Assembly: GCA_963840935.1 (NCBI GenBank)
Contig: CAWJAS010000001.1
Coordinates: forward strand, 706,790 to 770,789
Reading direction: 5' to 3'
DNA length: 64,000 nucleotides
Source of the DNA: Candidatus Magasanikiibacteriota bacterium
Lineage (GTDB): Bacteria; Patescibacteriota; Patescibacteriia; Magasanikbacterales; GWA2-37-8
A program made the translations under genes and the position numbers. How positions within the stretch are numbered: the stretch's first letter is position 1; the number at the start of each line of letters is the position of its first letter. Shown here piece by piece: positions 15,961 through 62,656 of this stretch. The notes under the pieces were generated by a model, which had not been told where the DNA came from, ran no database searches, and worked only from the letters and a program-made list of their open reading frames with translations.

Positions 15961-16695
15961 CTAACCGGTGGGTTTTTTTATTGTCATAATCTGCGCTTCG
16001 CCGTTTTTTATTTTTTGGCCCGCGCGATTGAAGTATTCTATTTTAATATTTTTGAACCCGGCATTTCTTGCCAGCGCGCGCAATTCCGAATCGGAAAATA
16101 TATGAATATATCGCGGGTAATCTTTTTTGCCCGTCGCTTTCCAGCCCACATAAACATCGCCCGCGTCATGGCCGGGTTTAATATTTTTTAATTGTTTTTC
16201 AATATTAAATTTATTTCTCGCCCAATCTTCAAGCAAATTCCAATTATCTATTTTTGCTGTTGCTCCATTTTTTAGCACGCGAAAAAGCTCATTCATAAAT
16301 TTTTGCCGTAGCTCATCTGACGGAATATGATGCATCACTGAAATGGAAATCGCAAAATCAAAATAATTATTTTTAAAAGGCAATTTCATGGCATCGGCCA
16401 CCACGAATTCAGCTTGTTTTGTTTTTATGTATGACGCGTATTTTTTTTTGCATAATTCGATTAATTTTTTTGAAATATCGACGCCGGTATAATAACCCCC
16501 TTGATTCATAATAGCGTTCGCCATAAGACCATTGCCACAGCCCAAATCAAGCGTTTTCATTTCGGTTTTTACGCCTTTAATCATTCGCATTTTTATTCCA
16601 CTCGGCTCAAAACGCGAAACATCCCATTCCTTGGCGATGGTATTGTAAATTCGGCTCATTTGCCGTACAATTGCTAATGCTTTACGTTTTTGCAT
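15961..16695 (-). CDS. Class I SAM-dependent methyltransferase
   Basis: Motif I is LDLGCGNGLMANAI and motif II is FDFAISISVMHHIP. Confidence 0.8.
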   Translation of the reverse strand: MQKRKALAIVRQMSRIYNTIAKEWDVSRFEPSGIKMRMIKGVKTEMKTLDLGCGNGLMANAIMNQGGYYTGVDISKKLIELCKKKYASYIKTKQAEFVVADAMKLPFKNNYFDFAISISVMHHIPSDELRQKFMNELFRVLKNGATAKIDNWNLLEDWARNKFNIEKQLKNIKPGHDAGDVYVGWKATGKKDYPRYIHIFSDSELRALARNAGFKNIKIEYFNRAGQKIKNGEAQIMTIKKPTG

Positions 16696-18510
16696 ATGGC
16701 TTTACTCCACGAAAAAATTATTAAAAAATTGCTTAGAAAAGTCCCCAAAACAGAGGATGATTTTGGCGCTGTTTTGCGTTCCGAATCCCGCGCTGTCAAA
16801 GGCAATCAAGGCACCCCGCGAAAATCGGATTTGCTTCGAGTATATCACGAACTTATTCAGGCGGGCAAGATAAAAAAATCTTCCGCTTTGGAATCTATAT
16901 TAATCAAGCGCGCGGTCAGAACATTGTCCGGCGTGGCGATTATTACGGTTTTAACAAAACCAAATGAGTGCCCGGGAAAGTGCATTTATTGCCCGAATGA
17001 AAAACAAATGCCAAAAAGCTATTTGAGCGATGAGCCGGCGGCGGCCAGAGCATTACTTTTAAATTTTGATCCATTTAAACAAGTAACTGCTCGAATTGAA
17101 GCGCTAAAAAATAACGGTCATCCGACCGATAAAATTGAACTAATTGTTAAAGGGGGCACTTGGAATGCTTATCCCCTGTCTTATCAATATTGGTTTATAT
17201 TGCGATGTTTTGAAGCGGCTAACTCATCATTGTCATTGCGAGCCCCGAAGGGGCGTGGCAATCCCCTGATAATTCAGGAAGCCGTGGGATTGCTTCGTCG
17301 CTCCACGGTCGCTCCTCGCAATGACAAAGTTACGTCTCTTCGCGCCGCTCTTCAAACAGCGCAGAAAAAAAACGAAAAAGCCAAGCACAGAATAATCGGC
17401 TTGACTTTGGAAACCAGACCGGATCACATCAATAAAAAAAATATTATTATAATGCGCGAACTTGGATGCACCAGAATTGAACTTGGCGTCCAAACGACTG
17501 ATGAAAAAATCTTGAAGCTGGTTAGGCGCGGGCACGGAACAGATGAAATAATCCAAGCCACGGAATTATTAAAAAATTACGGTTTTAAAGTTGATTATCA
17601 TTTGATGCCACAACTTCCCGGCTCGACTCCGGCCAAAGACGCGCGTATGCTTGAAGAAATTTTTGACAACCCGAACTACCGACCGGACATGATAAAAATT
17701 TACCCCTGCACGGTCACAAAAAATTCTCCACTTTATCTTTGGGTTAAATCAGGCAAATACAAACCATACACAGACAAAAAATTGATTGAACTTTTGATTA
17801 GTTTCAAAACCAAAATCCCCCGTTATGTCCGCATCTCTCGGCTTATCCGCGATATTCCGGGGCATCATATTGTTGCCGGAAACAAAATGACAAATTTGCG
17901 ACAAGTAATTCAAGCGGAAATGGCGCGTCGCGGACTCAAATGCAATTGCTTGCGTTGCCGTGAAGTCGGACATGCCAACCTCCCTCTCCTTGCCAAGGAG
18001 AGGGCTGGGGTGAGGTCCTCCTTTGAACCAAAACTATTTATTGATAAATATAAAGCTTCCGGCGGTACAGAATACTTTCTAAGCTTTGAAGACACAAAAC
18101 GAAAAATGGTGTTCGCTTTTTGCCGATTAAGAATATGTACGTCTGTCATCCTGAACGCAGTGAAGGATCTTGTTCCTCTTGTCATTCCCGCGTCCCGAAG
18201 GTATCCCTTTGGGAAAGGTGGAATCCAGTCACCGTTAGATCCCCGTTTACACGGGGATGACAACAAAATGGCATTTATTCGCGAGCTCCACACCTACGGA
18301 CAATCCTTATTATTAAAGCAAAAAAACAACAAGGCATTAAAACACATCCAGCACAAAGGGCTCGGCAAGAAACTTGTTAAAGAGGTTGAAAAAATCTGCA
18401 AAAAGAATAGAATAAATAAGCTGGCGGTAATATCGGGCGTTGGCGTGCGCGATTATTATCGCAAACTTGGATATAAATTAGAAAATACTTATTTGATTAA
18501 AAAAATTTAA
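16690..18510 (+). CDS. Elp3-like radical-SAM / GNAT protein (tRNA wobble-uridine modification type). It carries three in-frame palindromic repeat insertions.
   Basis: Radical-SAM cysteine motif (ECPGKCIYCPNE), a central zinc-finger-like region (CNCLRCREVG) and a C-terminal GNAT domain (GLGKKLVKEVEKICKKNRINKLAVISGVGVRDYYRKLGY). Its length of 606 aa is consistent with Elp3 plus about 80 aa of insertions. Confidence 0.7.
   Translation: MHMALLHEKIIKKLLRKVPKTEDDFGAVLRSESRAVKGNQGTPRKSDLLRVYHELIQAGKIKKSSALESILIKRAVRTLSGVAIITVLTKPNECPGKCIYCPNEKQMPKSYLSDEPAAARALLLNFDPFKQVTARIEALKNNGHPTDKIELIVKGGTWNAYPLSYQYWFILRCFEAANSSLSLRAPKGRGNPLIIQEAVGLLRRSTVAPRNDKVTSLRAALQTAQKKNEKAKHRIIGLTLETRPDHINKKNIIIMRELGCTRIELGVQTTDEKILKLVRRGHGTDEIIQATELLKNYGFKVDYHLMPQLPGSTPAKDARMLEEIFDNPNYRPDMIKIYPCTVTKNSPLYLWVKSGKYKPYTDKKLIELLISFKTKIPRYVRISRLIRDIPGHHIVAGNKMTNLRQVIQAEMARRGLKCNCLRCREVGHANLPLLAKERAGVRSSFEPKLFIDKYKASGGTEYFLSFEDTKRKMVFAFCRLRICTSVILNAVKDLVPLVIPASRRYPFGKGGIQSPLDPRLHGDDNKMAFIRELHTYGQSLLLKQKNNKALKHIQHKGLGKKLVKEVEKICKKNRINKLAVISGVGVRDYYRKLGYKLENTYLIKKI
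17230..17327. repeat. MITE-like nested palindromic element inserted in-frame in the Elp3-like CDS (13-bp perfect terminal inverted repeats ttgtcattgcgag / ctcgcaatgacaa)
   Basis: The TIRs enclose the cccc-gaa-gggg and ggcaatccc/gggattgcc sub-hairpins. It is translated as ...SLSLRAPKGRGNPLIIQEAVGLLRRSTVAPRNDKVTSL... Confidence 0.7.
17982..18012. repeat. Short palindromic element (ccctctccttg-N-caaggagaggg, then ctggggtgagg) in-frame in the Elp3-like CDS
   Basis: A perfect 11-bp inverted repeat, translated as HANLPLLAKERAGVRS between the CxCxRC motif and the downstream domain. Confidence 0.65.
18144..18262. repeat. Nested palindromic element (tgtcatcctgaacgcagtgaaggatc ... ccccgtttacacggggatgacaa) in-frame in the GNAT part of the Elp3-like CDS
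   Basis: Terminal inverted repeat ctgtcatcc / ggatgacaa, an internal hairpin ccccgt-ttac-acgggg, and a gtcattcccgcgtcccgaagg module. Translated as VILNAVKDLVPLVIPASRRYPFGKGGIQSPLDPRLHGDD. Confidence 0.65.
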
Positions 18511-18511
18511 T

Positions 18512-19501
18512 ATGCCCGAACACCATCCCTCACCCGAAGCCCGTGACGCCTCCTCCTTTGAATACTGGCTTGATAATGAGGTAAAAAGACAATATATAGA
18601 GCAAGTGACCGCTCTTAACGAGATTGGTCTTTTGGATATCTTGCCCGAAGCCGAAGCCAAGGGCGTGGTTGGTATTGACGGCAAGGAATACCCGGTCCCA
18701 AGCTGGGCGGAGATTAAGGCCGAATTAGAGAAAGACAAAGAAAAATATGATACCAAAAGAAAACAAGGTTTCACCGAACTACAGCTCACCTCTTTTGCTG
18801 TCCCGCTTGAACGATTAACCCACACTTTAGAGAAACAAATCCTCGAACACCACAAACAAGGCAAACTCCTGGCTACTAAGGACAAAGACACTGACCCGGA
18901 TGAACCATTGGAATTAGACACCAACCAACCCCTCTATACATGGGACGGTTGGCTCGACCCGAACGCCCCACAGGGCGAAAGAGGAGCCGATGTCACTGGC
19001 AAGTGCGTTTACTACCCCGAATCCTTTGATAAAAAAAACCACAACGGCCAGACCAAACAACAAATACTCGACAAACAAAACAAGAATAACTCTCCCTTCC
19101 CCGGCTGGAATGTCATCCTCCTGGAAGCCAGCCCGAATATACCGAGAGAGGGCAAAGGCAAAACCCTGAACAACAGAAAACAGTTGGAAGCAGGCAAAGA
19201 ACCACAGCAATATCTCAAAACCCTACAAACCGACCCAACCTACCGGCATGAACAAGGCCTGACTATCGAGGACTGGACAACCCAAATGCTTACTCACCTG
19301 CACAAAACCAACCAGGTGATTGATGATTACCAAGGCAAAGGCAGTATCTGCTATTGTGCCGGCATCTTTAATCCCGCTTTCGGCGACCTGGGCCGCGCCT
19401 GCTGGCGCCGCGACTACCGCCAGGCCTACTTGATCTGGTACGTTCCTGGCTCTCGGTACGACTTCGACGGTCTCCGCTCCGCGGTGGGGATTGGTCCTTG
19501 A
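18512..19501 (+). CDS. DGR target (variable) protein A. The C-terminal about 37 codons are the variable region VR1.
   Basis: 329 aa. It is about 93% identical to the inverted paralog at 24435..25424 except for the C-terminal about 40 aa. Its 3' end matches the template repeat with substitutions only at TR adenines. Confidence 0.8.
   Translation: MPEHHPSPEARDASSFEYWLDNEVKRQYIEQVTALNEIGLLDILPEAEAKGVVGIDGKEYPVPSWAEIKAELEKDKEKYDTKRKQGFTELQLTSFAVPLERLTHTLEKQILEHHKQGKLLATKDKDTDPDEPLELDTNQPLYTWDGWLDPNAPQGERGADVTGKCVYYPESFDKKNHNGQTKQQILDKQNKNNSPFPGWNVILLEASPNIPREGKGKTLNNRKQLEAGKEPQQYLKTLQTDPTYRHEQGLTIEDWTTQMLTHLHKTNQVIDDYQGKGSICYCAGIFNPAFGDLGRACWRRDYRQAYLIWYVPGSRYDFDGLRSAVGIGP
19376..19486 (+). repeat. 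DGR variable repeat VR1
   Basis: A 111-nt match to the TR (24025..24135, opposite strand). About 17 mismatches, every one at a TR adenine. A GC-rich hairpin (cccgccagc-atgag-gctggcggg) lies 40 bp downstream at 19530-19557. Confidence 0.85.
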
Positions 19502-19571
19502 TCTTTGGTTTTTAATTCGTATTATAAAACCCGCCAGCATGAGGCTGGCGGGTTTTAATTTATTCTAATTT

Positions 19572-22500
19572 TTAAAATCTACCGTGCCAAACATTGCCAC
19601 GACCGCCGGAATTGTAGGTCATCTGCGAGTTCAAATTATCACCAGTGCTCAAATCATCATAAATTTTCGTTTCCGGATCGCCCGAACCGTCGTCCAGCGC
19701 GCGCAAGCGCGTCAAAGCAATCGGGTCATTAGTCAGATTATCCGGCATCTTCACCGAACCGCCATATTGGCTGGCGACGGCCAATGTTTTGACCGGTAAA
19801 CCAACAAACATTTTTTTAACTCCGTCTAAAATCGCCGCTACCTGCTCTTCGCTTTCAATACCCGGGGCGTAATAAATACCATTGAGCATCAATGCCGGTT
19901 TTTTATCTTCATCCATGGCGAAACTACCAAAAATAAAACCAAGGTTTTCACTGGATGTTTGTTTAGGCGTATCATACAATGCTTCACCTTGCGGTTTTTC
20001 CATGGAGATAACAAACGATAGCGGGTCGGCGTTAATTGAGGCGACCCAATATTTATTTTCCGTGCCATGTTGAACCACCATATTGTAATTGTTGCTCGAA
20101 AAACAGCAAATTTTGCTGTCGGCAAAGCGCACCATATTCATCAGTTGTTTGGTTTTGTCCATATAGCGCAAACCGACGCGTTGGTGCTTTTTTTCTTCAC
20201 CGCGCGACATCGGCCGAACATAAGTCAATGTGTCTTGAATAGTTTGAAACGGCCCCTGCAAATGACTCTCCAATTCCTGCACCAAAGCCACATCGCTTTC
20301 GCGCAATCGCTCTTCGCCCAGCACCTGCATGCTGATAAAAGTAAAAATGGCGCTCGGTGATTTTTCTGTCAAGGCGATAATTTCTTGTCCGATGGCTTCG
20401 ATTTTTTGGCTTCGCTCACTTGCTGACAAGCCGGCAAACCGGTCTTCCACTTTCATTTCCGACACCATCTGGCGCTCATTTTCCAATTTGGTCAGTTCGG
20501 CCTGAATATTCGCGATTTGTTTTTCTAAACGCGGTTTGTTTTTTTCATCAGCCCTCTCCAGCCCTTCGCGCAAATTGCCCAGGGCTTTCTTTTTGCGCGC
20601 AATTTCACTAACCACGGCTTTGGCTCGCTCATTTCCGCCCCGCAATGCCACCAGCAAATCCTTTTTCATCTTTTTTAAGTCCAGCCGTTTTGCGTCCAGG
20701 CGGGGAATCAATTCTTCTCCGCGGATAACAATTCGCTCGTCGTCAAACACGCTGTCCAAAGTGGCTTCGAGCAACATTTTTTCGCCCAATTTTTTCCAAT
20801 TATCTTTAAGGTCATTTTTGGCGCGGTCACGCAGGTCAGGCCATTCTCTATCAATTTCTGAAATTAACTGTCCGCGATCAGCAAAGGTCTGCGCCGATGA
20901 CATCTGCGTTAAATATTTTTCAGCCATTTCAGTTTTTTCTTGCTGTAAATATTCGCGGTAGAGAGGGAATATCAAAACTACGCCGAGTTCGCCCCGGCCA
21001 AGAGCTCGGCCGATTTCTGCATTGGCATTTTTTATGGCCGCATTTTCACTTACCTCAAAACTCACTTCCTGATAAGCCCGTTCATTTTTTTCACCAAAAT
21101 AATGACCGTCTTCCAGCCGAGAACAAACCTCAGTTGTTTCGGTTTTTTTTAATCCGCCCCGCTCGAGCGCCGAAGCAAACGCATGCATCGGCTCTTTGTG
21201 CGTGCGCAATTTGGCAATCAAATCCAGCATTTCTTTGAATTTGGCAAAACTGTAATTGTTTATTAAATTGAAACGGTCATCCCCACCGTGGAGTAAATAA
21301 TAAATCATGGCCGAGTGTTCGTCGCGATTAAGGGCGGTAATAAGCGAGCGCGAGTCGGTAAATTTTTCAAACTCGGTTTGCTTGGAACGGATATCGGCCA
21401 CGCGTTCGGAAATATTTTTTGTCCGCCAATTCTTATCTTCGTAAATAAATTCCAAAATTTCTTTGCTCGGCATCACGCCGAGCTCTCCGACCACGCTCTG
21501 CAAAACTTCCAGCCGTCGATTTTCACTTTCCATCGTCACCGGCCCTTGTTTGTTTTCCGGCAATTTTTTTCGTTCAGACCGATTGGCTACTCCGCGCTCT
21601 TTCCACCACTCGGCCACATCTTTTGGCAAATAACCTTTGTCGCATAATTTGCCGAATAAATACAAAGCCAGATGATTGTTTAGGCGGGGGTCGCCGGCCA
21701 GGCGCAAAATTATGTCATTGCCTCGCCAGTCGTCAAAATTATCCAAAAATACTTTTATAACGCGAGGCAAATGTCCGGCTTCCATTTTTTCCGCCATATC
21801 GCCTGGCTCGCTTTCGTCGCGAATCAAATCCAACAGCAATTGGCGCGTATCCTCGCCCAGCGTACCGACGGCTTCGCTCAATTGTTTGGTAATAGCGCGT
21901 TCGTCAAATTTTTTGCGCTCCACCGAGACCTTTAATTCTTGATGTAAACGATTACGCACCGCCCGTCGCTGATTTTCTTCCTCTGATTTCTTTTCCACCA
22001 CCGCTTGGTGAAGCAGGGGCGCCAAAGCCAAATCCAATTCGCGCGACACTGCCGGCCGTTTGTCGTCGGGGATCAATGCCAAAAAATCCGCCCGATCTTT
22101 TTCGGGTAAAACCAATGCATAGTCGGCCAAAAGCTGTTTGTCACTGGTCGCTTTTTTAGCGATTTCATTCATGTCAGGCAAAGTGGATTTTTCAACCAAT
22201 TTTTTTTGCAAACCCAAAAGCATGGCATCTGCCAGCAAACTGGACGGAGCAACTTTGGGCACATTTTTACAAGCCGAAAGATATTTATCAGCGGTCTCCA
22301 TTTCCACATCCGGATACACACCGGCAACCAAACTCATTTTTGCCGCCCGCGCCATGGATAAGGCAGCCAAATCGGGAAACAATTCAGCCGTGTCTTCGGC
22401 TTTGGATATTAAAATTTTATACTGTCCTGTTGCCTCTTCGGTAGATAAATCATCTTGACTTCCACCGCCGGCTTCACTGTTAACTTTGGCCAAATCAGCA

Positions 22501-22679
22501 TCATAGCGCTCGCGCATAGCGCCGGTTGACCATGGTTGTTGCAAATTCAGTGCGTTGATGCGTAATTCTTGAGACCGTTTCCGCATTTCCGCGCGAATAT
22601 GTATGTTGCCAAATTCGGCCACAGATTTATTGTTGGCTTCTATGAAGTCCGATGGGTGTTGTCCTTCGCCTTTGCGCAT
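19572..22679 (-). CDS. Large (1,035 aa) hypothetical protein encoded immediately downstream of, and overlapping, the DGR reverse transcriptase. It has no recognisable catalytic motif and no Walker A.
   Basis: Long uninterrupted ORF with island-like GC (about 50%). The N-terminal two-thirds are K/E/R/L-rich and predicted helical. The C-terminal about 230 aa are beta-rich. Its start overlaps the RT stop by 40 nt, consistent with an operon. Confidence 0.65.
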   Translation of the reverse strand: MRKGEGQHPSDFIEANNKSVAEFGNIHIRAEMRKRSQELRINALNLQQPWSTGAMRERYDADLAKVNSEAGGGSQDDLSTEEATGQYKILISKAEDTAELFPDLAALSMARAAKMSLVAGVYPDVEMETADKYLSACKNVPKVAPSSLLADAMLLGLQKKLVEKSTLPDMNEIAKKATSDKQLLADYALVLPEKDRADFLALIPDDKRPAVSRELDLALAPLLHQAVVEKKSEEENQRRAVRNRLHQELKVSVERKKFDERAITKQLSEAVGTLGEDTRQLLLDLIRDESEPGDMAEKMEAGHLPRVIKVFLDNFDDWRGNDIILRLAGDPRLNNHLALYLFGKLCDKGYLPKDVAEWWKERGVANRSERKKLPENKQGPVTMESENRRLEVLQSVVGELGVMPSKEILEFIYEDKNWRTKNISERVADIRSKQTEFEKFTDSRSLITALNRDEHSAMIYYLLHGGDDRFNLINNYSFAKFKEMLDLIAKLRTHKEPMHAFASALERGGLKKTETTEVCSRLEDGHYFGEKNERAYQEVSFEVSENAAIKNANAEIGRALGRGELGVVLIFPLYREYLQQEKTEMAEKYLTQMSSAQTFADRGQLISEIDREWPDLRDRAKNDLKDNWKKLGEKMLLEATLDSVFDDERIVIRGEELIPRLDAKRLDLKKMKKDLLVALRGGNERAKAVVSEIARKKKALGNLREGLERADEKNKPRLEKQIANIQAELTKLENERQMVSEMKVEDRFAGLSASERSQKIEAIGQEIIALTEKSPSAIFTFISMQVLGEERLRESDVALVQELESHLQGPFQTIQDTLTYVRPMSRGEEKKHQRVGLRYMDKTKQLMNMVRFADSKICCFSSNNYNMVVQHGTENKYWVASINADPLSFVISMEKPQGEALYDTPKQTSSENLGFIFGSFAMDEDKKPALMLNGIYYAPGIESEEQVAAILDGVKKMFVGLPVKTLAVASQYGGSVKMPDNLTNDPIALTRLRALDDGSGDPETKIYDDLSTGDNLNSQMTYNSGGRGNVWHGRF

Positions 22680-23647
22680 ATCTTGTTTTTGATTAACCAG
22701 TTATAATTTTTTAGATGTTTAAGATGGTGTTGCTTTGCCAGACCATAATAGCTGGGTACATTCCGCCGATTCAATCGAGATTTTGCTCTGCGCCAAATTT
22801 TAGCTTTGAGCCGTCGGCCAGTAGGATAGATTTCTACGCCCAAAAAATGGATACCCCGCCGCACAGGTAATAATATATCATTTTTACGGTTTATTTCAAG
22901 TCCAAGAGCATTTTTTAAGAATATCAACACTCTCTCTCGTAAATCTTTTGTTCCTATTCTTGTCTGAGTTATTATTATAAAATCATCGCCATAACGAAGA
23001 TAAAATTGCGGTTTTAAAATATGTTTTACAAATCGATCCAATTCATTGAGATAAATATTGGCGAAAATCTGGCTGGTCAAATTGCCGATAGGGATTCCCC
23101 GCTGGTCAGCTTCTCTTTTGTTTTGTCCAGAGTGAATATAACTGCCAATAATTATTTTAAGCAGGTTAGTTGTTTTGGTATCTTTAATACGGCGCGCCAT
23201 AATGCAAAGCAATACATCATGCTTTACGCTGTCAAAAAACTTGGTAATATCCGCCCGCCAGATAAAACTTTGAGAATATTTTTTAAACATTTTTTCCGTT
23301 CGCGCGATTGCCCCAATCAATCCTTTTTCTTTACGGCAAGACCAAGCGTCGTAAATAAAAGTTTTGTCGTAAATCTGCACAAGATATTCATAAACCAAAC
23401 GATGAAAAACCCGATCGCGAACACTGGCGACCGCGATATCACGGCGTTTGTTATCCGTCACCGTAAAATGCTGATACGGACCATGTATATATTGCCCGTT
23501 GTTCAAGTCCGTAAAAAGCCCCCATAAATTGTTTTCCAAAAAATATTGAAACAAATCAAGTTCATTTGTTCTTCTTTTTCCTCGGCGAAATTCAAACCAA
23601 CTTTGCCAAATATTATTTAAACTTAAATCAACGGGCGCTTTAAACAT
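22640..23647 (-). CDS. DGR reverse transcriptase
   Basis: RT motifs including the YxDD box (YLRYGDDFII) and the DGR-RT-characteristic QGIPIGNLTSQIFANIYLNELD segment. It is 335 aa. Confidence 0.9.
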   Translation of the reverse strand: MFKAPVDLSLNNIWQSWFEFRRGKRRTNELDLFQYFLENNLWGLFTDLNNGQYIHGPYQHFTVTDNKRRDIAVASVRDRVFHRLVYEYLVQIYDKTFIYDAWSCRKEKGLIGAIARTEKMFKKYSQSFIWRADITKFFDSVKHDVLLCIMARRIKDTKTTNLLKIIIGSYIHSGQNKREADQRGIPIGNLTSQIFANIYLNELDRFVKHILKPQFYLRYGDDFIIITQTRIGTKDLRERVLIFLKNALGLEINRKNDILLPVRRGIHFLGVEIYPTGRRLKAKIWRRAKSRLNRRNVPSYYGLAKQHHLKHLKNYNWLIKNKICAKAKDNTHRTS

Positions 23648-23675
23648 AATATTCTTAATTGATTCATCTTAATAT

Positions 23676-24020
23676 ATGCTAACATTACCCATAATCAATC
23701 AGGTTTACGAGGTGTATAAAATAATGGCGGACATAAATATCCACACAGAAAAACGCTGGCGTTATTCATTGGGCTCAAGTTTGGAAAACACAATTTTAGA
23801 TTGTATGTCCGAACTGATCATGGCCAAAAATGCGCCAAAACCAATTAAGGCCGGTCATCTTATTCAGGCCGGCGCGCATTTAGAAATATCAATCTTAAAA
23901 TTGCGACTATTTTTGGAGTTAAAAATTGCCAATGAAACAAAAGTTTTTCAGGCGCAAGCCAAAATCCGAGAGATTGGAAGAATGCTCGGTGGCTGGCTGA
24001 AGTCCTTGCAAAATACATAA
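23676..24020 (+). CDS. avd: DGR accessory variability determinant (Avd, four-helix-bundle protein)
   Basis: 114 aa. The C-terminal region IREIGRMLGGWLKSL and the central RYSLGSSLENTILDCMSELIMA pattern resemble Bordetella phage bAvd (LIAEVGRILGSWIARV). It is immediately adjacent to the TR. Confidence 0.7.
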   Translation: MLTLPIINQVYEVYKIMADINIHTEKRWRYSLGSSLENTILDCMSELIMAKNAPKPIKAGHLIQAGAHLEISILKLRLFLELKIANETKVFQAQAKIREIGRMLGGWLKSLQNT

Positions 24021-24024
24021 ACCT

Positions 24025-24135
24025 CACCGCGGAGCGGAGACCGTTGTTGTCGTTCCGATTGCCAGGATCGTTCCTGTTCAAGTTGGCCTGGCGGTTGTCG
24101 CGGTTCCAGTAGGCGTTGCCCAGGTTGCCGAAAGC
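24025..24135 (-). repeat. DGR template repeat (TR). The sense (adenine-bearing) strand is the minus strand, and it is rich in AAC (Asn) codons.
   Basis: The minus-strand reading GCTTTCGGCAACCTGGGCAACGCCTACTGGAACCGCGACAACCGCCAGGCCAACTTGAACAGGAACGATCCTGGCAATCGGAACGACAACAACGGTCTCCGCTCCGCGGTG aligns to both VRs. All differences fall at its adenines. Confidence 0.9.
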
Positions 24136-24434
24136 ATTAGTGATAATATCCGTCCGTAAAATTGAATGACCGCGGTCAATCCAAAATTGCGCCTATTGCG
24201 CTAAACAAACCCGCGCGGGGGTATAGATATTACTCATCACGGTGGGATTTATGTGTAAGGGTTTACGCCACACGATATTTGCTAAAATATTTTAGAAATA
24301 CTTCGCGTTTTTTCGGCGTTTGAACATAGCGGCAGCCCGCCCCAAGGCGGGTGGCTTTTCACCGGGTATGTTATTTTTTTTAAAAACGAAAAACCCCAAA
24401 ACCAAAAGAAAAAAGAAAAAACAAAGGCCAAAGA

Positions 24435-25424
24435 TCAAGCACCCACCCCCACCGCGGAGCGGAGACCGCTGTCGTCGTACCGACTGCCAGGAACGCTCCT
24501 GACCAAGAAGGCCCGGCGGCCGTCGCGGTCCCAGCAGGCGTAGCCCAGGTTGCCGAAAGCGGGATTAAAGGTGCCGGCGAGGAAACAGGCACTGCCTTTG
24601 CCTTGGTAATTATCAATCACCTGGTTGGTTTTGTGCAGGTGAGTAAGCATTTGGGTGGTCCAATCCTCGATGGTCAGGCCTTGTTCATGCCGGTAGGTTG
24701 GGTCGGTTTGTAGGGTTTTGAGATATTGCTGTGGTTCTTTGCCTGCTTCCAACTGTTTTCTGTTGTTCAGGGTTTTGCCTTTGCCCTCTCTCGGTATATT
24801 CGGGCTGGCTTCCAAGAGGATGACATTCCAGCCGGGGAAGGGCGAGTTGTTTTTGTTTTGTTTGTCGATTATTTGTTGTTTGGTCTGGCCGTTATGGTTT
24901 TTCTCGTCAAAGGATTCGGGGTAGTAAACGCACTTGCCGGTAACATCGGCCCCTCTCTCGCCCTGTGGGGCGTTCGGGTCGAGCCATTCGTCCAAGGTGT
25001 AAAGGGGTTGGTTGGTGTCTAATTCCAATGGTTCGTCCGGGTCAGTGTCTTTGTCCTTGGTAGCCAGGAGTTTACCTTGTCTGTGGTGTTCGAGGATTTG
25101 TTTCTCTAAAGTGTGGGTTAATCGTTCAAGCGGGACAGCAAAAGAGGTGAGCTGTAGTTCGGTGAAACCTTGTTTTCTTTTGGTATCATATTTTTCTTTG
25201 TCTTTCTCTAATTCGGCCTTAATCTCCGTCCAGCTTGGGACCGGGTATTCTTTGCCGTCAATGCCAACCACGCCCTTGGCTTCGGCTTCGGGTAAGATAT
25301 CCAAAAGACCAATCTCGTTAAGAGCGGTCACTTGCTCTATGTATTGTCTTTTTACCTCATTCTCCAGCCAGTATTCAAAGGAGGAGGCGTCACGGGCTTC
25401 GGGTGAGGGGCGGTGTTCGGGCAT
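24435..25424 (-). CDS. DGR target (variable) protein B, an inverted paralog of protein A. Its C-terminus is VR2.
   Basis: 329 aa, near-identical to protein A until the last about 40 residues. Confidence 0.8.
   Translation of the reverse strand: MPEHRPSPEARDASSFEYWLENEVKRQYIEQVTALNEIGLLDILPEAEAKGVVGIDGKEYPVPSWTEIKAELEKDKEKYDTKRKQGFTELQLTSFAVPLERLTHTLEKQILEHHRQGKLLATKDKDTDPDEPLELDTNQPLYTLDEWLDPNAPQGERGADVTGKCVYYPESFDEKNHNGQTKQQIIDKQNKNNSPFPGWNVILLEASPNIPREGKGKTLNNRKQLEAGKEPQQYLKTLQTDPTYRHEQGLTIEDWTTQMLTHLHKTNQVIDNYQGKGSACFLAGTFNPAFGNLGYACWDRDGRRAFLVRSVPGSRYDDSGLRSAVGVGA
24450..24560 (-). repeat. DGR variable repeat VR2
   Basis: A 111-nt match to the TR with about 15 mismatches, all at TR adenines and at positions different from VR1. 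A downstream hairpin gcccgcc-ccaa-ggcgggt lies at 24347-24368. Confidence 0.85.
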
Positions 25425-25590
25425 ATTAAATTATAAAATAAGTATGTCGTCGAATTGACAAAAGTATGAATAAATAATAGCAAATATTATATACCATGTC
25501 CAACAAACGCGCAGACAAATAAATTTATCGAAAAATTGACAAAAAATACATAAAAGCTGATAATAAGGTAATTGAAAAAATAAAAAATTT

Positions 25591-34930: not shown

Positions 34931-37900
34931 CTAGAGTAAAGAAGGAAATACGCAGGAACACCTACATTGATTAGTGCAACTCTTTACTTGACCAAAAACT
35001 GTACACGCAGGACAATTGGACGGGTCGATATCACACTCTTCATAAGAAAAATTTATCCATGGATAAGGTGGGATCAATAAACCAGATGCGTAATTTATAT
35101 TAAGAACTCCTTGTCTTATCCCGTCACCGCAATAACCCCTTCCGACCAAATTGATAGGATCTGTCAATGATACAGGGAAACTATTTACCGCGCATCCGCT
35201 AGATATGCTGTTTACCACTGACTTACTAACATCCCAACCGGTACAATCCGTTTTACAAGGAAGACACCTGTCCACTTCATCAATAAACATTGTTCTAGCG
35301 AAACCTCCGTTTGACATGCCCGGGTCGCACAATTCACTTTCGTTTAAAATACCATTTCCACAAACAATATCTTTTGTAATAACATTTTTACAATCAGCGG
35401 AACAATATGTGCAATTCTGCTGAGGATAGATCGGCGTGCAAATAATTCCATTTTCGTCCTCTCCACGATCGCAAGCTTCAAATTCATCCACTATTCCATT
35501 ACCGCAAACTCCAACTGTCGGCACAGCGGAATCAGCGATGCATTCCTGTAATTGGCAATTTAAACACTCGGCCGTCCCGCTAAAACCACCATCCGTGGTG
35601 CAAGGTACCGGCGTAGTCCCTTCACATTGCTCACCGCTATCCGTTTGCAACATACCGTCTCCGCAATAACCGCCAAAACCCGTGCAATTCCAATTGCATG
35701 AAAAGGCATTAAAAATATCATACTGCCGGCAAGGCTGGCTATAATATATCTCGAGCATTTGATCAAGAATTGAATCGCTAGAATCATTAATTGGAATATA
35801 TTGGTATGTGCCACCAGCCGCCGCCCAATCATTGAATGCCTGAGTAAAATAAGCTACGCCAAACACATATGTTAATACGCCATAACCGGGGCTGTTTAAA
35901 AGCGTAATTTCTTCTGTAGGGGTTGGTACTCCCGTTGAAGCACCATCGGTTACTAAAATAAGATTAATTTGTCTCTGTTTATCTTCTTCGCTAAAATTCT
36001 CATATATATTTTCTCTCCACCATTTAATTGCTGCGCCGGTTGGAGTACCGCCACTTGCGGCGAAAGTTCCGACTACCCCAGCCACTTCTACCGGCATCGC
36101 AAATTTAATATCTGGATCTAAATAATCCACAAAAATATTTGAGCTTCTAAAAGAACCTATGCCTATTTTTGCCTTGGTTTCAGATTCGGCAAATTGTACG
36201 GCTAATAACGGAAGTTGTTCTTGCACATACTGCAATCTTGATTTTTCACCGGGTGGAGGCGTGGCGGCACCGGAAAAACTATAATTCATAGAACCTGACA
36301 AATCCACCAAAAAGTAATAGACTGGTTCGGTTGTGAATCCTTTTTTTGTTTCTACCCCCGGCCTATAAGCGCAAGTCACGGGTTGAGTTGCGGTTGCTAA
36401 AACAGTATCGCAAAATTCACCCGAATCCAAAACTCCATTTCCGCAAGTTTGAAAAATACCGGAACAACCCGTGTTGCATCTGCCCGGCTGGCCATTTAAT
36501 AATCCATCATCACAAACTTCTCCGATTGAATATTGAATTTTGCCATCTCCACAAGTTCCTCCGATCGCCTCGGCGCAAGTAGTGAGAGATTCGGCTCCCC
36601 AAGCACACTGGCTATTGCAGGTTTTTTTGGTAGCTGAGGCAGGGCACGCCACCGTATTATAACTTACCGATCCGGGCGGGTCGCACTCCTCTCCACTACC
36701 TAAAACTCCATCACCACAATATACATTATATGGCGAGGAAATCTCATTGGCCGAAGCGCAAACTCCATATTCAAACAATACTTTGTTGAAAGTAAAATCA
36801 TTTAAAAAATTAAAATAATTCTGAGGCTCCGGACTTTGAAGTGTTTCAAGATTTGCTCTGAGTAAATATGATTGAGTAGTTGAAACAAAACTATAACGAT
36901 AGGCATATGACGAAGTATTGCAAGCAAAACTAAACCGCCTGTCTTCCGCGCTCCAACCGGTCACTGGATCATGCAGAACGCACAGCCCGGCATATAAATT
37001 ACCGATTTCAGCAGTATCCAATTCACGAGAATAAAACGCTATATTGTCGATTTTACCGTTAAAACTCTCACCCATTTCAATACTCAAAGTATTTGTGGCA
37101 TACGGGAATGAAGGCTCTGTGATAGTTACAGAGGCTCCATTCGGAGGGACCCTGAATGTCTCACTAACCAAATTGCCATTGATATACAATTTGCCTGTTT
37201 TTGTGTTTTTATTAAAAGTAGCGGAAATATAATACCATTGATTTAAACCGAGCGGTTCCTGCGAATCAATGGCATAATATTTATTCGGGTTAGAAGCTTC
37301 AGGGAATATTGCAAAACGAATAGTGCCGTTGTTAAACCTTACTTGTGACCCGGTAAACTGAAGACCGCTATACTCAAGAATAAATCCTCCTAAACTATTT
37401 CCATCTCCATCCGAACCACCCTTTTTAATAATTGTGGCAGTGTTTCTTTTGGTCGGATAAATCCACGCTGAAACTGAAAAATTATCGCCATTATATTCAT
37501 CAAAGTTCCCGGCAACTACTTTGGCCGATGAATCACCAGCAAATTCAAATGCTTTACCGTGCCCCTTGCCGGCAACTGTTTGCACCGTTCCCTCAATAGT
37601 CGCATTGTTACCTATCGCCCCCTCGTCTTTATTGCCTTCGTCAGCCGTCCAATAGCTTGATCTTCCGCTAATCGGTATGGTGGCACAATCAGCATCTCTA
37701 AAACAGGCTTCATATTGATTGCCCGATACTGGTAAAAAGCATGTTCCACTTTGCGCTAATTTATTTATCGGGTCGACCGGAAGCTGTGTGTTTAATTGCG
37801 AACCCAAATCAGACCAGGTGGTTGGCCAAACACTAAAAGCATGACCGGGTAAATATGTATTTTCCGGCAAATTCGGATAACCGCCGTTATATGGCAAACT

Positions 37901-40900
37901 ATCATAAAACAAATCACGCATTTCGTCTGGATTCAAAGCTCTGGCATAAATCCTCACATCATCAATATCGGCTTTAAAAACAGAATCGCAACCCAAGTCT
38001 AACGCTGAGCATTTCATACAATTACCAACACTACTGCAAATTGGCGTACCAATTCGAGGTTTCCCTTCATACATATGACCAAAGGAGGACGGATAAGAAT
38101 CACTACCGGATAAAGCACCGTCGACATAACACGAAACATTTGTTTGCCCGGCTTGTCGATCAAAAACGACTGCTATGTGATGCCATAAATTATCATTAAC
38201 TTTATCTTCAGAACATAAATAATCCGCCCCGTTATATGAAATTCTATAACTTACCTTTCCATTGCTAATACCAAAATAATATCTATTATTCGTACTATTC
38301 GGATCGGCGTCATTTGTAACCGTATACGCCCGATACTGACTCGAGGTTGTTTTTATCCAATGAGCGATTGTAAAAGACCTATTACCAATATCTGTCGCTT
38401 TTGTTGCAACCAAATACGCCGGCTGTTCCAAATGGAGAGCCTGGCTAATTCGCCCGCTTAATAAAGATGCTTTTCCTGTTGATTGATTAATTACGGCTTC
38501 GAACCCGCGACCGGTACTATCAGGTAATTTCCCATAAGTAACATAATCCATCGGCCAAATGGCGACGGCTCCTCTGCCCCACTCAATACTTTTTATCATT
38601 CCACGCAAATCATTCAAACGAGTATAGTTTCTTTGTAATTTATCTTTTTGGTTATAGCAAAAATAATTGCTCTTTGTGGTTGTGGGACTGGCTTTTTTTA
38701 TTGCTTCCATTTGCGCCAGACAATCCATATCGTTTGAACACTGCATTCCATAATCTATATTTGCGCCACTATAATCGGATGCGCAATATGGATCGTTTTT
38801 TAAACGAAGATTGAATTTTAAATACTTAATTATTTGATTAAATACTTCTTTTGTTTGGGCGGTGGCGTCGCTATTAATGCTAAACTGGTAAATATTTGAA
38901 TAAATATTAAATGTTGTCGGGTTGGTGTATAGGGGCTGAACCAACGCATCAATATAATAATTATTTCCATCGGTCAAAGCGTCAAAACCGTCTATTTTTA
39001 CCGAGTTCATCTGGCCAGTGTAGCCTTGAGACGCATACCAATCACTTATTGATAAATGATTGGAATTATAAAAAATCTGAATACCAATGGCATCTTTGTT
39101 GTTATTATTAATAAAAATATATCTTTTCACATAAGGTGAACCAACTGACGGCGTCCAAATTTGGCTGGTTGTAACATTTGGCAAATCATCGGCTATACCC
39201 ACCATACCATAATCCATGCAATAATAGGTGGAAAAATCATGTTCCTCGTCCTTGAAAGGAAAATTATCAAGCGAGCCGGAAGGCCAGCGATTCTCGCATA
39301 AAAATACTACGATTCGCGACTTTCCAGTAACGATCGGGGAAGCGAGCGGAAAAATATTTTCTGTAAAACGTGATGTGGCTGTTAAATCAACTTCTCCATT
39401 GCGATTTTTGGCAGTAACCACATTCACGGTGCCGGTGGCGTTTGCTATGGCAATAAATTCATTTTGAGCAGGGCCCCAATCATATTCCCACGAATAACCG
39501 GCCACCGGTTGGATGTACTGGTCATTTTGAGAAATTGATTTTACCTCAAAATCTTCTGTAACGCCGGACTTATTAAACATGTGTTCATCCGGATCAATTT
39601 CCGCTTTGTCCAATACACATATTTCATTACCGGTAATAAATTGCCATTGTGCGGTATTGCCAATACTCACTCCGCGAACATCTTTTGCGCCGGGTCTAAA
39701 AATAATGGCGTAGTCGCTGTCAAAAGCGAGCGGTTTATTGAGACTAATCAAAACAGAGGAGGTTGAATTAACACCCTTTGGGTCATTAACAATAACGCTG
39801 GGCGTTCCTGTTTCATCGCCAACGCAATAAATATTAGCATTAAATTCACTACGCGGTGTGTCAGCCGATGCTTTTATGCCGAATAAATTTTTAACCCAAC
39901 CTGTAAAACCGGCCCATAATCTTTTATACCATGGTTGTATCTGGTCACGCGCGTCCGCGATATAGCCCCTTACAAGATCCGTCACATCAATTTGACCAAC
40001 CGGACATTCGGGGGTTGTCGTGGCAATATTATAGCCACGAGCAATATAAACTGCACCTGGCAGTGTATTAATATCAATTACCTTGTTAAAAGTGGCTTCA
40101 ATATATGTATTTGGGCAAACATCAAACGCGGTCGCAACCTCAGAACTTGAAGGCATGGTGCGAGCGGGATAAGTATCAATCAAGAGCGCGCGTTCATAAC
40201 AGCATGAATTTTCCGCCACACCCATAAGAGGATTATTTGTTTGTATTTGACATTCAAGATCAGTATTAAAACCGCATAAAATTTCGAATTGTCCTTTGCC
40301 GGATTCGGTATAAATTTTTTCATCAACTTCTTGCTCACCGGTTGCGGTAATATCTGTAATTTGCGTATTGTTGGGCGTGGTAGTACCAAGACCGATTCCA
40401 ACTGCCAAGGCCCAAGGGTCAACAAACTCGCGAACATAAACAAAATTCTTTTCGCAATCGGGATCTTCGCCAATACCGACAATACCGTCTCCACAAAGCG
40501 AAGAGGTAGAATACATTAAAGACGATCCTTCATATTGCCCGATTGAGTTACATCCTTCTGATTTGATTACACTTGTATAAATTGGATTATTTTCAATATC
40601 TCTCACTACTAATGTGGTGGTAGGTGAACATTTTTTTAGCGAATCATCAAACACATTTATCAAACAACGGTCTGTGCAAATGAGCAGAGGATTAGTTGCG
40701 TCCTCGCAGGCCTTATCTTCATCCGGACTGGCTATATCATCACCGCAAATACTTTTTGCCTTGGCGCAAGCGGTGTTGAATTCAGACATTGAAAATCCGC
40801 CATAGGTGGTAGTATTATTGTCATCAACGCACCAACCGGCATATAGCGCTGAACCTAAATGCAAACACTTTTCAGAACAAAATAGCGATGAAGTCGAACG

Positions 40901-43900
40901 CCAAAAATCGGGCGAGGTTCCAAGGTCGCAATCTTCGCCCACGCCAATCATGCCATTTCCACAAATTGATGCGCCAGTATCTTCGGCTCCGGTTTGAGGA
41001 GATGAACCGGCATAAAGACAATTTGATGTGCATCCAGCGGATGTGGCTGGATTATTTGGGTCACATTTTTCGCCTTTGAGCGGGTTTACCACGCCATCTC
41101 CGCACAAGCCGTAATCAATAGTACCACCATAAGATATGGTTGTTGTTACATTATTATTCCCCGGTCGCAAACAATTAAGAGTACACGCCACTGTATCACC
41201 TATTTTTCGAGGAGGGTCGCAGTCTTCCCCGGCTTCCACCGCCATATTCCCACACAAAGGTTCCATTACTCCACCATAGGGAATTGAACTTCCTTTTTTA
41301 ACACAATTGGCGGTGCAAAAAGAATTTTTTCCTTTTGTTTTAAATTCCACAACCTCGGCAACCAAAATATCGCTTGATGCCCAATCCCAATCAAGCGACC
41401 ACGCGTTTAGCAATTGGCCTTCCGGGTCACAAGAATCCGGCGCTGAACGAGCCTGGGAAGAATAAACTTTGCGCGAATCAATGGTCAGGGCTCTATACAA
41501 AACCGGAGTTACCGTCACGCTGTCAACCGTGCATTTTTCACTTTTTGTTCTGAACCTCCAGCTAAACGCCTCTTGCATTGGCTTACCTTGAGATGATGGT
41601 TCATTAATTGTTTTTTGAGACCAAAGCTGTGAAGTTTGGTCGCCCACACTATCACCCGTTTTGGACAAAACCACCAAATACAAGGTATCTTTTTGCCATT
41701 CAGGATTTGGGTCTTCTGTTGTCGCCATCGGAACAATACTTAAAAACCTTAAATCATCGCCAAACTTCACATCCAAATCATAAGACGGAATCTGAACAGT
41801 AGAAGAACAATTTTCATCAAAACACTTATAAACTTTCACGCCATTATCAACATTATATGATGACATTCGAATATTAAATCTTGCTCCAATTTCCGCGTTA
41901 GTACATGCTTCCAAGCAATTCGGCCAATAATCAACCACGCGCGGTTTTGACAAATCAATTGTTAACGGACTAACACCGATTTTTTGATCATAATCAAATT
42001 CATTTATACCTTGATAAAGGGCAAAAACTTCTCCGGGCGTTAAATCTTTTTTGTATATTCTCACGTCGTCAATATCGCCGTGCCAAAATTCATTTGGGGT
42101 TGGATGAATTTGCGCGCCGATGTATGCATATTGTTGTACCAAATACCACCCCGGTTTGGCTTCTTTCGCCACTTGAACTCCGTTTGCATATAATGTGGCA
42201 TAAGTTCCGTCATAAGTTAAACAAATATGATTCCATATATCCGCCTGCCAAAAATTATTGACTTGAATATCATCTCCATATCCACCGGCAACCAAATGAC
42301 TGCCCAATCTTCCGATAAACATCGCTCGTCCGGTTCCCATCGAACCATAGGCAACCAGCCATTTATATGAAAAATTGACATCGGACGTTTTACCCCAAGC
42401 GCACATGGTTCGCGAATTTTTTGCATCCGGCAGAATCCACGGATTTGACAATACGACTACGCCATCAGTACCGTTCAATCTTATTGCCCTGTTTATTTTA
42501 CCATTCACAAAAGTAACCCCGCCTTGAATAACACCGTTATTTTCATCACCACCCATACTCATATCCAAAACATTATCTCCATCAAAAGTCCACCAACTTA
42601 TCAAGCCATTCTCTGAAGCAAGACTGCCCTTAGTGGCGGTTGCTTCAATGTTTGCCGCGTCTTCCGGATTTACTAATCCCACACTTACGGTATTGCTCAA
42701 GGCTGAAACTTGTTGCATATTGCCGTTCGTGCCTGTTGAAGCTCCGTACAGTTCAGCGTAACTATTTCTGCCGGCCTGAACCGACCATTCCCATTCATAA
42801 CCATCCATATTCATCATTATACATTTTTGGTCGCTTAGCCCAGTCCCGCGATAATAAAAATCCGTCCCCAAATCGTCCGTATTATCTTTAATATCTCGCC
42901 TCATAATCGGTTCTTCCAAAATTGACGTCCAATATGTATACGGGGTAACCACTACTCGTGCCAATTTACAATCCCGCGCGTCTGTTTTAAAAACAAAACA
43001 ATAAGCCGAATCTGCTCCGCAAGTGCTTTGTGGTTTTAGATTTTGGGGGCCCAAAGCAATTTCATCATCGCCATACATATATGATGTCGGCGCCGACATT
43101 AAATCTGTTTGCAATACAACATGATAATAAGTATCATCTTCCCACTGTCCGCTTTGCGGAAACATTTGAACATAGTCATGATTGGCATTTTCCACGGCCG
43201 AAGCGGGATACAAAACATAGCTATCATTTTTCATTTGTACTGGCCCGCCAACATGTACACAAGAATTGACTGTTGGAAAAAAAGCTCCTTCTAATGAAGA
43301 TGTGGTACATTTAAAAACTTGGATATTATTCGCATTTACAGAACTCTGTAACATTCTCATGGAAAATTCAACCGTTATTTCAGCTGTCCGACATACATTA
43401 AAATGATCGTTGTTTTCAGACAATGACCAGCGAATATTCGGTGATGGTGATGGTAAATTCAATCCTAAATCCGTTTCGCTATTACATCTTTCAACAACTC
43501 TCGCGGTCGGAGGGAAAGGCCCTGTGTTAAATCGCCACATATAACCGGTGGATCGCGTTTGTCCATCGCACAATTCCGTATTCAAACGACAAATTCCGGC
43601 ATCATTACCGGCAGTGCAACATTGATAAGCCGGACTAGCACAAGTATTATTATTTTCTAAACAATTAAAAACAGTAAAGGGCATGCTGTTGCCCATCTTT
43701 CCATCAGTTGAGCGATACATGACGACCGGACCCGTCTCTGTATCCCAAGGCGGTTGAACAACCGCACGAGTATTGGAAACGGAAATGGTACCAGTGGTTG
43801 TTCTTCCGGTGATCGACAAAGGATCGGCGGCTGATAGCCAAAAATACGGCACGGCCAAAACACTGTCCCTGGTATAATATTCACCAAATATCTGCATTGT

Positions 43901-51896: not shown

Positions 51897-51970
51897 GGGC
51901 GTATAGCTCAGCTGGTTAGAGCGTTTCGTTGACATCGAAAAGGTCTCCCGTTCAAGTCGGGATACGCCCA
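51897..51970 (+). tRNA. tRNA-Val (anticodon GAC)
   Basis: GGGCGTA / GCTC-AGCTGGTTA-GAGC / TTTCG-TTGACAT-CGAAA / TCCCG-TTCAAGT-CGGGA / TACGCCC-A. Confidence 0.85.
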
Positions 51971-51991
51971 CAAGTAAGAGTTTCACAATAA

Positions 51992-52065
51992 GGGCAATTA
52001 GCTCAGATGGTTAGAGCGCGTCACTGATAATGACGAGGTCGGAGGTTCGATTCCTCCATTGCCCA
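51992..52065 (+). tRNA. tRNA-Ile (anticodon GAT)
   Basis: GGGCAAT / GCTC-AGATGGTTA-GAGC / CGTCA-CTGATAA-TGACG / GGAGG-TTCGATT-CCTCC / ATTGCCC-A. Confidence 0.85.
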
Positions 52066-52097
52066 CATTATAAAATTACCACCTTTAAGAATAATAA

Positions 52098-52241: not shown

Positions 52242-53780
<1,539 letters not shown>

Positions 53781-54129
53781 TAAATAAGATATTTGATTTT
53801 ATTTTTTGACGCCTAAGCGCCAAAAAAGAATTTGTATTTTTTGTTTTTAGGAATAAACGATTATCTATGAACAAACCGAAATTTGTTCATGTGGTTTTTG
53901 TCACATTTATATTGTCAACGATCGTTCTTTTCGCTTTCACAATCGCGTACTCATACGATTCTTGTATTTTTCGAGTTTGAATAAACTCGCGCGGAAAGAA
54001 AAAAGAGGAAGCCAAACTGACTTACTCTTTTCTCCTTCCAGTTTCCTCTTTTCGCAAAAATCAACGAGGACTTAGAAAAATATTTGATTTATTAAAGATG
54101 AAATTTTTGTCAGTATTTTTTTAGCTTGT

Positions 54130-62238: not shown

Positions 62239-62649
62239 GGGGATGTCCGGTTTCGACGGGGCAGGAAGTGCTTTGATTGCAGGTCGTAGAGCGTGTGGCT
62301 ACGTAAAAAGACGCAAAACATATAAATGCCAACACAGGCAAATCCTTCAACTTCGGTTTCGCTAGCGCCCCTATGGCGGTTGCAGCCTAACTAAAAGTGG
62401 AAGATTGATCCTTTAACCAGGATCACGGCCCGTTCTAGTGTTACTCTCAGGCTAGACGCAAGCTGAAATATACTGCTGAGTTGCGGGGGCTAGACGCCGA
62501 TACGGCCCCTTAAGACACATCGGCTAGTTGGGCATAGGAATCTCGTCGCCGGAGTCCGCCAGCGAAACAACAAATGTGCAACTAAACCTGTAGACGTCTC
62601 TGTACAAGTGTTTCGGACGGACGCGGGTTCAATTCCCGCCATCTCCACC
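62239..62649 (+). ncRNA. ssrA: tmRNA (ssrA). The predicted tag peptide is ANTGKSFNFGFASAPMAVAA.
   Basis: The 5' end is GGGGATGTCCGGTTTCGACGGGG. The 3' tRNA-like end is GGACGCGGGTTCAATTCCCGCCATCTCCACC. An internal tag reading frame begins at GCCAAC and ends at ...GCGGTTGCAGCCTAA. Confidence 0.85.
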
Positions 62650-62656
62650 TATAAAA

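Follow-up and report, generated by a model that had tools for sequence, protein, structure and literature searches.

Diversity-generating retroelements (DGRs) of Patescibacteria, also known as Candidate Phyla Radiation (CPR) bacteria, have been described as a class with its own gene order. Wu et al. 2018 defined architecture B3 as TR-(avd)-RT, named from the template repeat (TR), the accessory gene avd and the reverse transcriptase (RT) gene; 90% of the DGRs in their CPR set have this order, which hardly occurs elsewhere (PMC5758913). According to Roux et al. 2021, RT clade 2 occurs only in Patescibacteria, and the targets of CPR DGRs typically lack recognisable transmembrane (TM) or other domains (PMC8144416). 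Here, a stretch of 64,000 nucleotides from the chromosome of a Candidatus Magasanikiibacteriota bacterium, referred to below as the window, was analysed with respect to such an element. We give a probability of roughly 0.9 to the reading that the locus is a chromosomal DGR of the Patescibacteria type with the core order TR-(avd)-RT. It is a standard, already known type of Patescibacteria DGR and not a new kind of system. An earlier note on this DNA had proposed that the DGR is complete, with a single TR, two diversified targets in inverted orientation, an RT, an Avd protein and ends resembling the initiation of mutagenic homing (IMH) sequence, and every test that was run upheld this proposal. 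A check of the open reading frames (ORFs) also returned the genes at the places that the note had given. The parts of the element are the following:

18512 to 19501, plus strand: target gene T1, 329 aa, without a Pfam family, predicted C-terminal fold like that of formylglycine-generating enzyme (FGE) and C-type lectins
19376 to 19489, plus strand: variable repeat VR1, 114 nt, differing from TR at 19 positions, each of them a TR adenine
19572 to 22679, minus strand: BIG, 1035 aa, about 820 aa of helical repeats and a predicted C-terminal GNAT-like alpha/beta domain
22640 to 23647, minus strand: DGR reverse transcriptase (RT), 335 aa, with the motifs GIPIGNLTSQ and YLRYGDD
23676 to 24020, plus strand: accessory gene avd, 114 aa, divergent from RT, with Pfam, NCBIfam and PHROG matches
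24022 to 24135, sense on the minus strand (read from 24135 to 24022): template repeat (TR), 114 nt, 29 adenines, 11 AAY codons, 3′ end GGTGAGGTTTATG
24435 to 25424, minus strand: target gene T2, paralog of T1 in inverted orientation, 329 aa
24447 to 24560, minus strand (read from 24560 to 24447): variable repeat VR2, 114 nt, differing from TR at 17 positions, each of them a TR adenine

The pattern of differences between the repeats carries the assignment. The boundaries of TR and the VRs were set by ungapped comparison, and when mismatches over the 114 nt were tabulated by TR base, TR adenines accounted for 36 of 36 (19/19 in VR1 and 17/17 in VR2). TR has 29 adenines among its 114 nt; the hypergeometric probability that all mismatches fall on them is about 1e-13 in VR1 and 7e-13 in VR2. 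The homology and the restriction to adenines had both been recognised in the earlier note, and both hold; the alignment is 114 nt rather than 111 nt long, and the ~17 and ~15 mismatches counted by hand were slightly too few. The adenines of TR are confined to codon positions 1 and 2. No substitution at them can create a stop codon, and about 8e16 peptide variants can be reached per target. TR itself is non-coding and is a neighbour of RT and avd, and the VRs sit at the 3′ ends of the two inverted paralogs. No further remote VRs were found within the window.

The enzyme and its accessory protein agree with this assignment. A DGR RT was recognised by motif 4 (I/LGxxxSQ) and YxDD in a protein whose gene adjoins a TR. 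The window RT carries GIPIGNLTSQIFANIY and YLRYGDD, and the motifs IGNLTSQ and YLRYGDD that had been read from it before are present. It is matched by Pfam RVT_1 (4e-18) and PHROG 1423 (2e-80), and its homologs at 34–69% identity are located in DGR loci. The closest relative in the PDB is 8ub7_A (1.5e-33), a 328-aa reverse transcriptase that we take, from its length, to be the Bordetella bRT, and the RTs of group II introns and retrons score about 1e-20. The proposed Avd homolog was confirmed by Pfam PF22296 bAvd, with 44.1 bits at a gathering score of 40, and by PHROG 3206, “Avd protein of DGR” (2e-13); the match to NCBIfam NF033474 DivGenRetAVD (1e-14, 54.8 bits) is under the cutoff of 80. 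Assignment to a defence system was considered and rejected, as the hits of PADLOC were generic ones to the RT, and T, BIG and Avd had none.

The ends of the repeats can be compared with those of known DGRs. TR, VR1 and VR2 have an adenine-free GC-rich 3′ block, GGTCTCCGCTCCGCGGTG, in common. Both VRs go on to G-rich 3′ ends, GGGATTGGTCCTTGATCTTTGG and GGGGTGGGTGCTTGATCTTTGG (…GGTGGGG…CTTGATCTTTGG), which they have in common past the stop codon. After the common block TR reads AGGTTTATGTATTTTG, and its 3′ end GGTGAGGTTTATG is unlike the ends of the VRs. This contrast, to which the earlier note had pointed, is seen directly in the repeat alignment. The difference fits an IMH/IMH* asymmetry, with the TR end as the putative IMH*.

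The order of the core follows from the position of avd. Since this gene lies between TR and RT and on the plus strand, opposite to both, the core order is TR-(avd)-RT; the strand of avd is a correction to the earlier note, which does not mention it. Its stop codon is 1 nt from the 3′ end of TR, and its start is 28 nt from the start of RT, head to head. The core order, the reverse-strand avd and the CPR host are those of architecture B3. The likeness to the CPR B3 DGRs (PMC5758913; RT clade 2, PMC8144416) extends from the core order, the reverse-strand avd and the host phylum to the chromosomal or cellular location, the multiple targets and the targets without recognisable domains or TM segments. 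There is no essential difference between them and the window element. The family of the T proteins and the 1035-aa partner BIG are not named in Wu et al. 2018 (PMC5758913) or Roux et al. 2021 (PMC8144416), and they may be catalogued in Paul et al. 2017.

The DGR of the Bordetella phage BPP-1 (mtd-avd-TR-brt) is a more distant point of comparison. Adenine-specific mutagenesis, an AAY-rich TR, Avd and RT, a VR at the C-terminus of a protein with a C-type-lectin fold, a GC-rich IMH block, putative in the window, and a hairpin, here after VR1, are common to both. In contrast to BPP-1, avd is inverted in the window and placed between TR and RT, and consequently the RNA 3′ of TR is antisense avd, with no dedicated spacer. 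The window element also differs in having two targets on opposite strands, in not being phage-borne and in that its targets are predicted to be soluble proteins rather than tail fibres.

Both targets are members of one family that escapes detection by sequence. Neither T1 nor T2 had a match in Pfam, NCBIfam or the PDB by phmmer or profile searches, even when all 105 family members were scanned. The AlphaFold model built with these 105 homologs has a predicted local distance difference test score (pLDDT) of 95.7, and its C-terminal fold is of the FGE/C-type-lectin kind and corresponds to that of TvpA, Mtd and TaqVP, which are variable proteins of DGRs. In this predicted model, the VR, at the 3′ end of the target ORF, lies within the C-type-lectin fold. 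T is like TvpA of Treponema denticola and TaqVP of Thermus in the predicted C-terminal fold; it differs from them in that sequence similarity is undetectable, a lipoprotein signal is lacking and the N-terminal half (about 180 aa) is different. Hydrophobic segments suggestive of a signal peptide or TM helix are absent from both T and BIG. T is probably a soluble, intracellular protein with a predicted C-type-lectin-like binding face.

T1 and T2 form an inverted repeat of 1010 nt that is 93% complementary (18504–19513 and 24423–25432). Outside the VR, they differ at 45 of 864 nt, which corresponds to 94.8% nucleotide identity; the near-identity claimed in the earlier note was therefore found, and its figure of about 93% was not confirmed as written. 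Among the differing codons outside the VR, 25 are synonymous and 13 non-synonymous, and long identical tracts lie between the differences. A separate observation concerns a cluster of nine nucleotide differences between the two genes, 10–30 nt 5′ of the VR (19346–19365 and 24571–24590; SICYCAGI versus SACFLAGT). This cluster is outside the TR homology and has no adenine pattern. It may reflect selection on residues that pack against the variable face. A longer ancestral TR as its source was ruled out, because the TRs of related loci are likewise 113–121 nt long.

The arrangement recurs in other genomes and metagenomes. The searches gave 162 hits for the T family and 56 for the BIG family, all of them in Patescibacteria and all annotated as hypothetical. 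For a comparison of genome loci, 24 loci encoding T were used. Two of them, L003 from a Magasanikiibacteriota genome and L006 from a Moraniibacteriota genome, have the layout of the window, T(+) BIG(-) RT(-) avd(+) TR T(-), and each has one TR and two VRs with adenine-specific mismatches. Variants of this layout are found in L009, L012 and L025, with two targets in L009 and L025. In total, the adenine-specific TR/VR pattern was found in at least six independent loci. In L001 and L026, a T gene, BIG and an inverted T gene stand together with no DGR between T and BIG, and even so the differences between the two L026 VRs are DGR-like in pattern. In L002 (7998–17932), BIG is followed by seven tandem T paralogs, of which only two match the adjacent TR, and the locus adjoins genes for a type IV secretion system (T4SS) coupling protein, a relaxase and a DUF3768 protein. 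This context suggests that the T/BIG module is able to ride conjugative elements. A metagenome scan with the RT yielded 80 loci at 34–66% identity; in nearly all of them, the starts of avd and RT are divergent and usually overlapping, and T-family genes occur in the flanks of about 15. Given these recurring layouts, the window element is one member of a large, described class. Public contigs with T are mostly 1–2.5 kb long and those with BIG mostly 3.3–5.5 kb, and assemblies tend to break at T genes, as multi-copy genes with population-variable VRs would cause.

Around the core, three further features are relevant to expression and homing:

19525 to 19557, no strand: GC-rich hairpin with a stem of 14 bp, 36 nt downstream of VR1, in the gap between the convergent genes T1 and BIG (z = -6.5)
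24136 to 24434, minus strand: spacer from the T2 stop codon to TR, with a weak 6-bp GC stem at 24336 to 24351
25425 to 25590, no strand: right end of the insert, with divergent promoter-like sites for T2 and glyA

The hairpin looks like a bidirectional terminator for T1 and BIG, and its position is that of a DGR cruciform. The promoter-like sites lie at 25502 to 25474 on the minus strand for T2 and at 25536–25564 for glyA, the latter with an 11/12 match. A promoter of TR, or a region of read-through, is presumed within the spacer.

A mechanism can be outlined from these parts, in which we infer the transcription units, the current activity and the functions of T and BIG. A minus-strand transcript from T2 or from the spacer would run through TR and antisense avd into RT and the overlapping BIG gene, and Avd would be expressed from the opposite strand. 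RT and Avd would then make complementary DNA (cDNA) of the TR RNA, with misincorporation opposite template adenines, and the cDNA would replace the last 38 codons of T1 or T2. Homing would be directed by the adenine-free block GGTCTCCGCTCCGCGGTG together with the VR-specific G-rich IMH. TR would be spared from rewriting because its 3′ end differs. The outcome would be two copies of a soluble protein, of which each could assume about 1e16–1e17 sequences.

The repeats themselves bear on the question of activity. At the 85 non-adenine positions of TR, VR1 and VR2 show 0 differences from each other, while 3.7 would be expected from the background of 4.4% of sites at which T1 and T2 differ outside the VR (P ~0.02). 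Both VRs are identical to TR at all 85 positions, which indicates that both were rewritten from TR after the paralogs had diverged. Together with the intact RT, Avd and target ORFs, this makes it likely, as far as the sequence can tell, that the DGR is or recently was active.

Several observations weigh against the reading of a complete and working element. VR2 is followed only by a 6-bp GC stem about 96 nt downstream, which is no better than shuffled sequence, so that the GC-rich hairpin that had been proposed after each VR holds for VR1 and fails for VR2. In Bordetella and Legionella, a hairpin downstream of the VR is reported to be needed for efficient homing (PMC5758913). No consensus TR promoter was found on the minus strand. 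A conserved RNA structure 3′ of TR, in antisense avd, was unsupported by RNAalifold on six loci (covariation term +0.39), a test confounded by the coding constraint of the opposite strand. The NCBIfam model for Avd and all RT equivalog models, including those for group II and Drt, scored below their curated cutoffs. Finally, no occupied locus of the same species was found in the metagenome scan with the RT, which gave no contig above 66% identity, and activity is read from the locus itself; an exact-protein look-up of T1 likewise returned no indexed contig.

Some of these points favour a fossil DGR, which diversified T1 and T2 in the past and is now inactive, with frozen VRs. VR2 lacks the hairpin reported as needed for efficient homing, and the metagenome scan yielded no population data for the VRs. 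Moreover, decay does occur in the clade, since the RT match is split into two segments in L006, L009 and L025, and L006 has two separate RT ORFs. However, the RT, Avd and both targets of the window are intact, full-length ORFs with catalytic motifs, and the VRs agree with TR at 85/85 non-adenine positions despite the 4.4% drift between the paralogs. For this reason, we consider a fossil element unlikely and retain the reading of a DGR with current or recent activity.

The insertion site provides information on the history of the element. In a relative that is about 96.5% identical, the site is empty: the stop codon of the Elp3-like gene is followed by 1 nt and the ATG of glyA, without the cassette. 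The empty site was seen in seven Logan contigs (L107–L113), which were reached through a 90%-cluster mate of the window glyA and are 96–97% identical to both flanks. In the window, the Elp3 stop codon is followed by 1 nt and the ATG of T1, and glyA lies 7,079 bp further on behind a new upstream region of 166 nt. The 7.1-kb cassette is thus a presence/absence polymorphism. It consists of T1, BIG, RT, avd and T2 only, with the DGR core embedded in a conserved module of T, BIG and an inverted T, and no integrase or transposase is found in the insert. Its junctions share only short A/T-rich similarity around TATGC; consequently, the cassette may have been gained in this genome or lost from the sibling through microhomology.

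The earlier note had seen a laterally acquired island between the Elp3-like gene and glyA. The island itself is borne out by the empty site in the relative, and lateral gain is indistinguishable from loss in the sibling. The GC argument behind the claim did not survive measurement: instead of about 50% against about 35–38%, the cassette has 46.0% GC and the rest of the window 42.5%. The value of the cassette is raised by the T genes (51–52%), and RT (37.7%) and avd (39.1%) are under the window average.

The leaders of the T genes add to this history. The T2 leader (25425–25455, minus strand) is a copy of the ~24 nt at the end of the Elp3-coding region; these nucleotides form the T1 leader (18485–18511) and belong natively to the empty site. 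This points to gene conversion between the T copies after the cassette had come to lie behind Elp3; on the sequence, the copy implies either conversion from T1 to T2 or an inverted duplication after integration. In the compared genomes, T leaders are unrelated between genomes and common within each. A role of the leader as integration homology was rejected on the grounds of this pattern.

Two side observations concern the neighbouring genes. The Elp3-like radical-SAM/GNAT gene (16690–18510) has three small GC-rich palindromic in-frame segments in comparison with the sibling contig L107, either inserted or substituted, at 17227–17349, ~17985–18020 and ~18130–18269. An example is GTCATTGCGAG…CTCGCAATGAC, encoding “…LRAPKGRGNP…RRSTVAPRNDK…”. 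These segments resemble elements of the miniature inverted-repeat transposable element (MITE) type that are tolerated in coding sequence, and no second copy is present in the window. In distant Patescibacteria, T-family genes directly adjoin glyA (L005, 6159–8834) or pyk (L004, 5–2196), which are the same housekeeping genes as in the window at a different exact site.

An alternative reading is a phage or prophage DGR that serves tropism switching, with T as a receptor-binding tail protein. In its favour, the prototype DGR comes from a phage, close strains differ by the presence or absence of the cassette, and the T4SS coupling protein and relaxase near the BIG/T module of L002 point to a mobile context. 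Nevertheless, the 7.1-kb insert contains no phage structural, integrase or lysis genes, and its flanks are housekeeping genes. No IMG/VR viral contig carries a T relative, T and BIG have no PHROG hits, and T has no structural match in BFVD. A phage origin is therefore highly improbable, and the chromosomal DGR remains the preferred reading. Ordinary divergence of duplicated paralogs, with gene conversion and positive selection on a binding loop but no retrohoming, could draw on the evident T1/T2 conversion (common leader, mosaic identity tracts) and on the nine-difference patch that is not TR-templated, and it is effectively refuted by mismatches that are adenine-only, at a chance of about 1e-13 per VR, around a non-coding TR that adjoins RT and avd, in a pattern that recurs in at least six independent loci.

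The conserved partner protein BIG is the least familiar part of the cassette. The start of its gene overlaps the 3′ end of RT by 40 nt, and for this reason the two are probably co-transcribed. Searches of Pfam, NCBIfam and the PDB were negative at the sequence level, and a search with the C-terminal domain alone returned only BIG fragments. The structural model has a pLDDT of 82. Its helical repeats, ~820 residues in all, gave HEAT/TPR-like matches that were non-specific throughout, and the C-terminal domain is modelled with an alpha/beta fold like that of GNAT proteins. The acyl-CoA-binding motif of GNAT enzymes is Q/R-x-x-G-x-G/A. In every BIG locus that could be inspected, T genes adjoin BIG, and the genetic linkage between the two is accordingly strong.

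A comparison can be made with the putative DGR-diversified antigen sensors of conflict systems in multicellular bacteria, in which C-type-lectin domains are fused to STAND or MoxR NTPases and the RTs are of clade 5 (Doré et al. 2024, PMC10907252). Common to both are a probably cytoplasmic C-type-lectin variable domain and its genetic tie to a large protein that is non-variable and has an enzyme-like domain. The window differs in that T is a separate small protein whose gene adjoins that of a helical-repeat/GNAT-like protein, and in contrast to those systems no NTPase, protease or death-like domains were found. As a speculation that we regard as rather doubtful, T and BIG might form a two-component system specific to Patescibacteria. 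In it, T would be the hypervariable, probably intracellular recognition subunit that directs or regulates BIG, which might, for example, acylate or sequester a foreign or host-derived ligand, and the T/BIG/inverted-T unit with its embedded DGR would be mobile between strains without a recognisable recombinase. Such a sensor–effector arrangement would parallel the antigen sensors of multicellular bacteria, with components that are unrelated to theirs.

Other features of the window are independent of the element. A giant ORF of 3746 aa (34931–46171, minus strand), whose sibling copy matches Pfam T4SS_pilin, Big_5/Big_7, TIG, Laminin_G_3 and Toxin_R_bind_N, probably encodes a giant surface or adhesion protein. 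A 16S rRNA gene (52244–53787, minus strand) has no adjacent 23S rRNA gene in the window; the genes for tRNA-Val and tRNA-Ile are right next to it and run on the other strand (51897–52066, plus strand), and a tmRNA gene is located at 62239–62650 (plus strand). This arrangement is ordinary for a small CPR genome.

The knowledge of DGRs is unchanged by this locus. Its interest for follow-up lies in the linkage of T and BIG and in the precise presence/absence polymorphism. It is an unusually clean, fully intact representative of the DGR that is standard in Patescibacteria, and its genome is a single contig of 771 kb. It would be a good reference locus because it is intact, has two targets in opposite orientation and is matched by an empty site in a sibling. 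It could be used for studies on cDNA priming in TR-(avd)-RT elements without a dedicated spacer, on the dependence of homing on target orientation and on the role of the target proteins in CPR bacteria.

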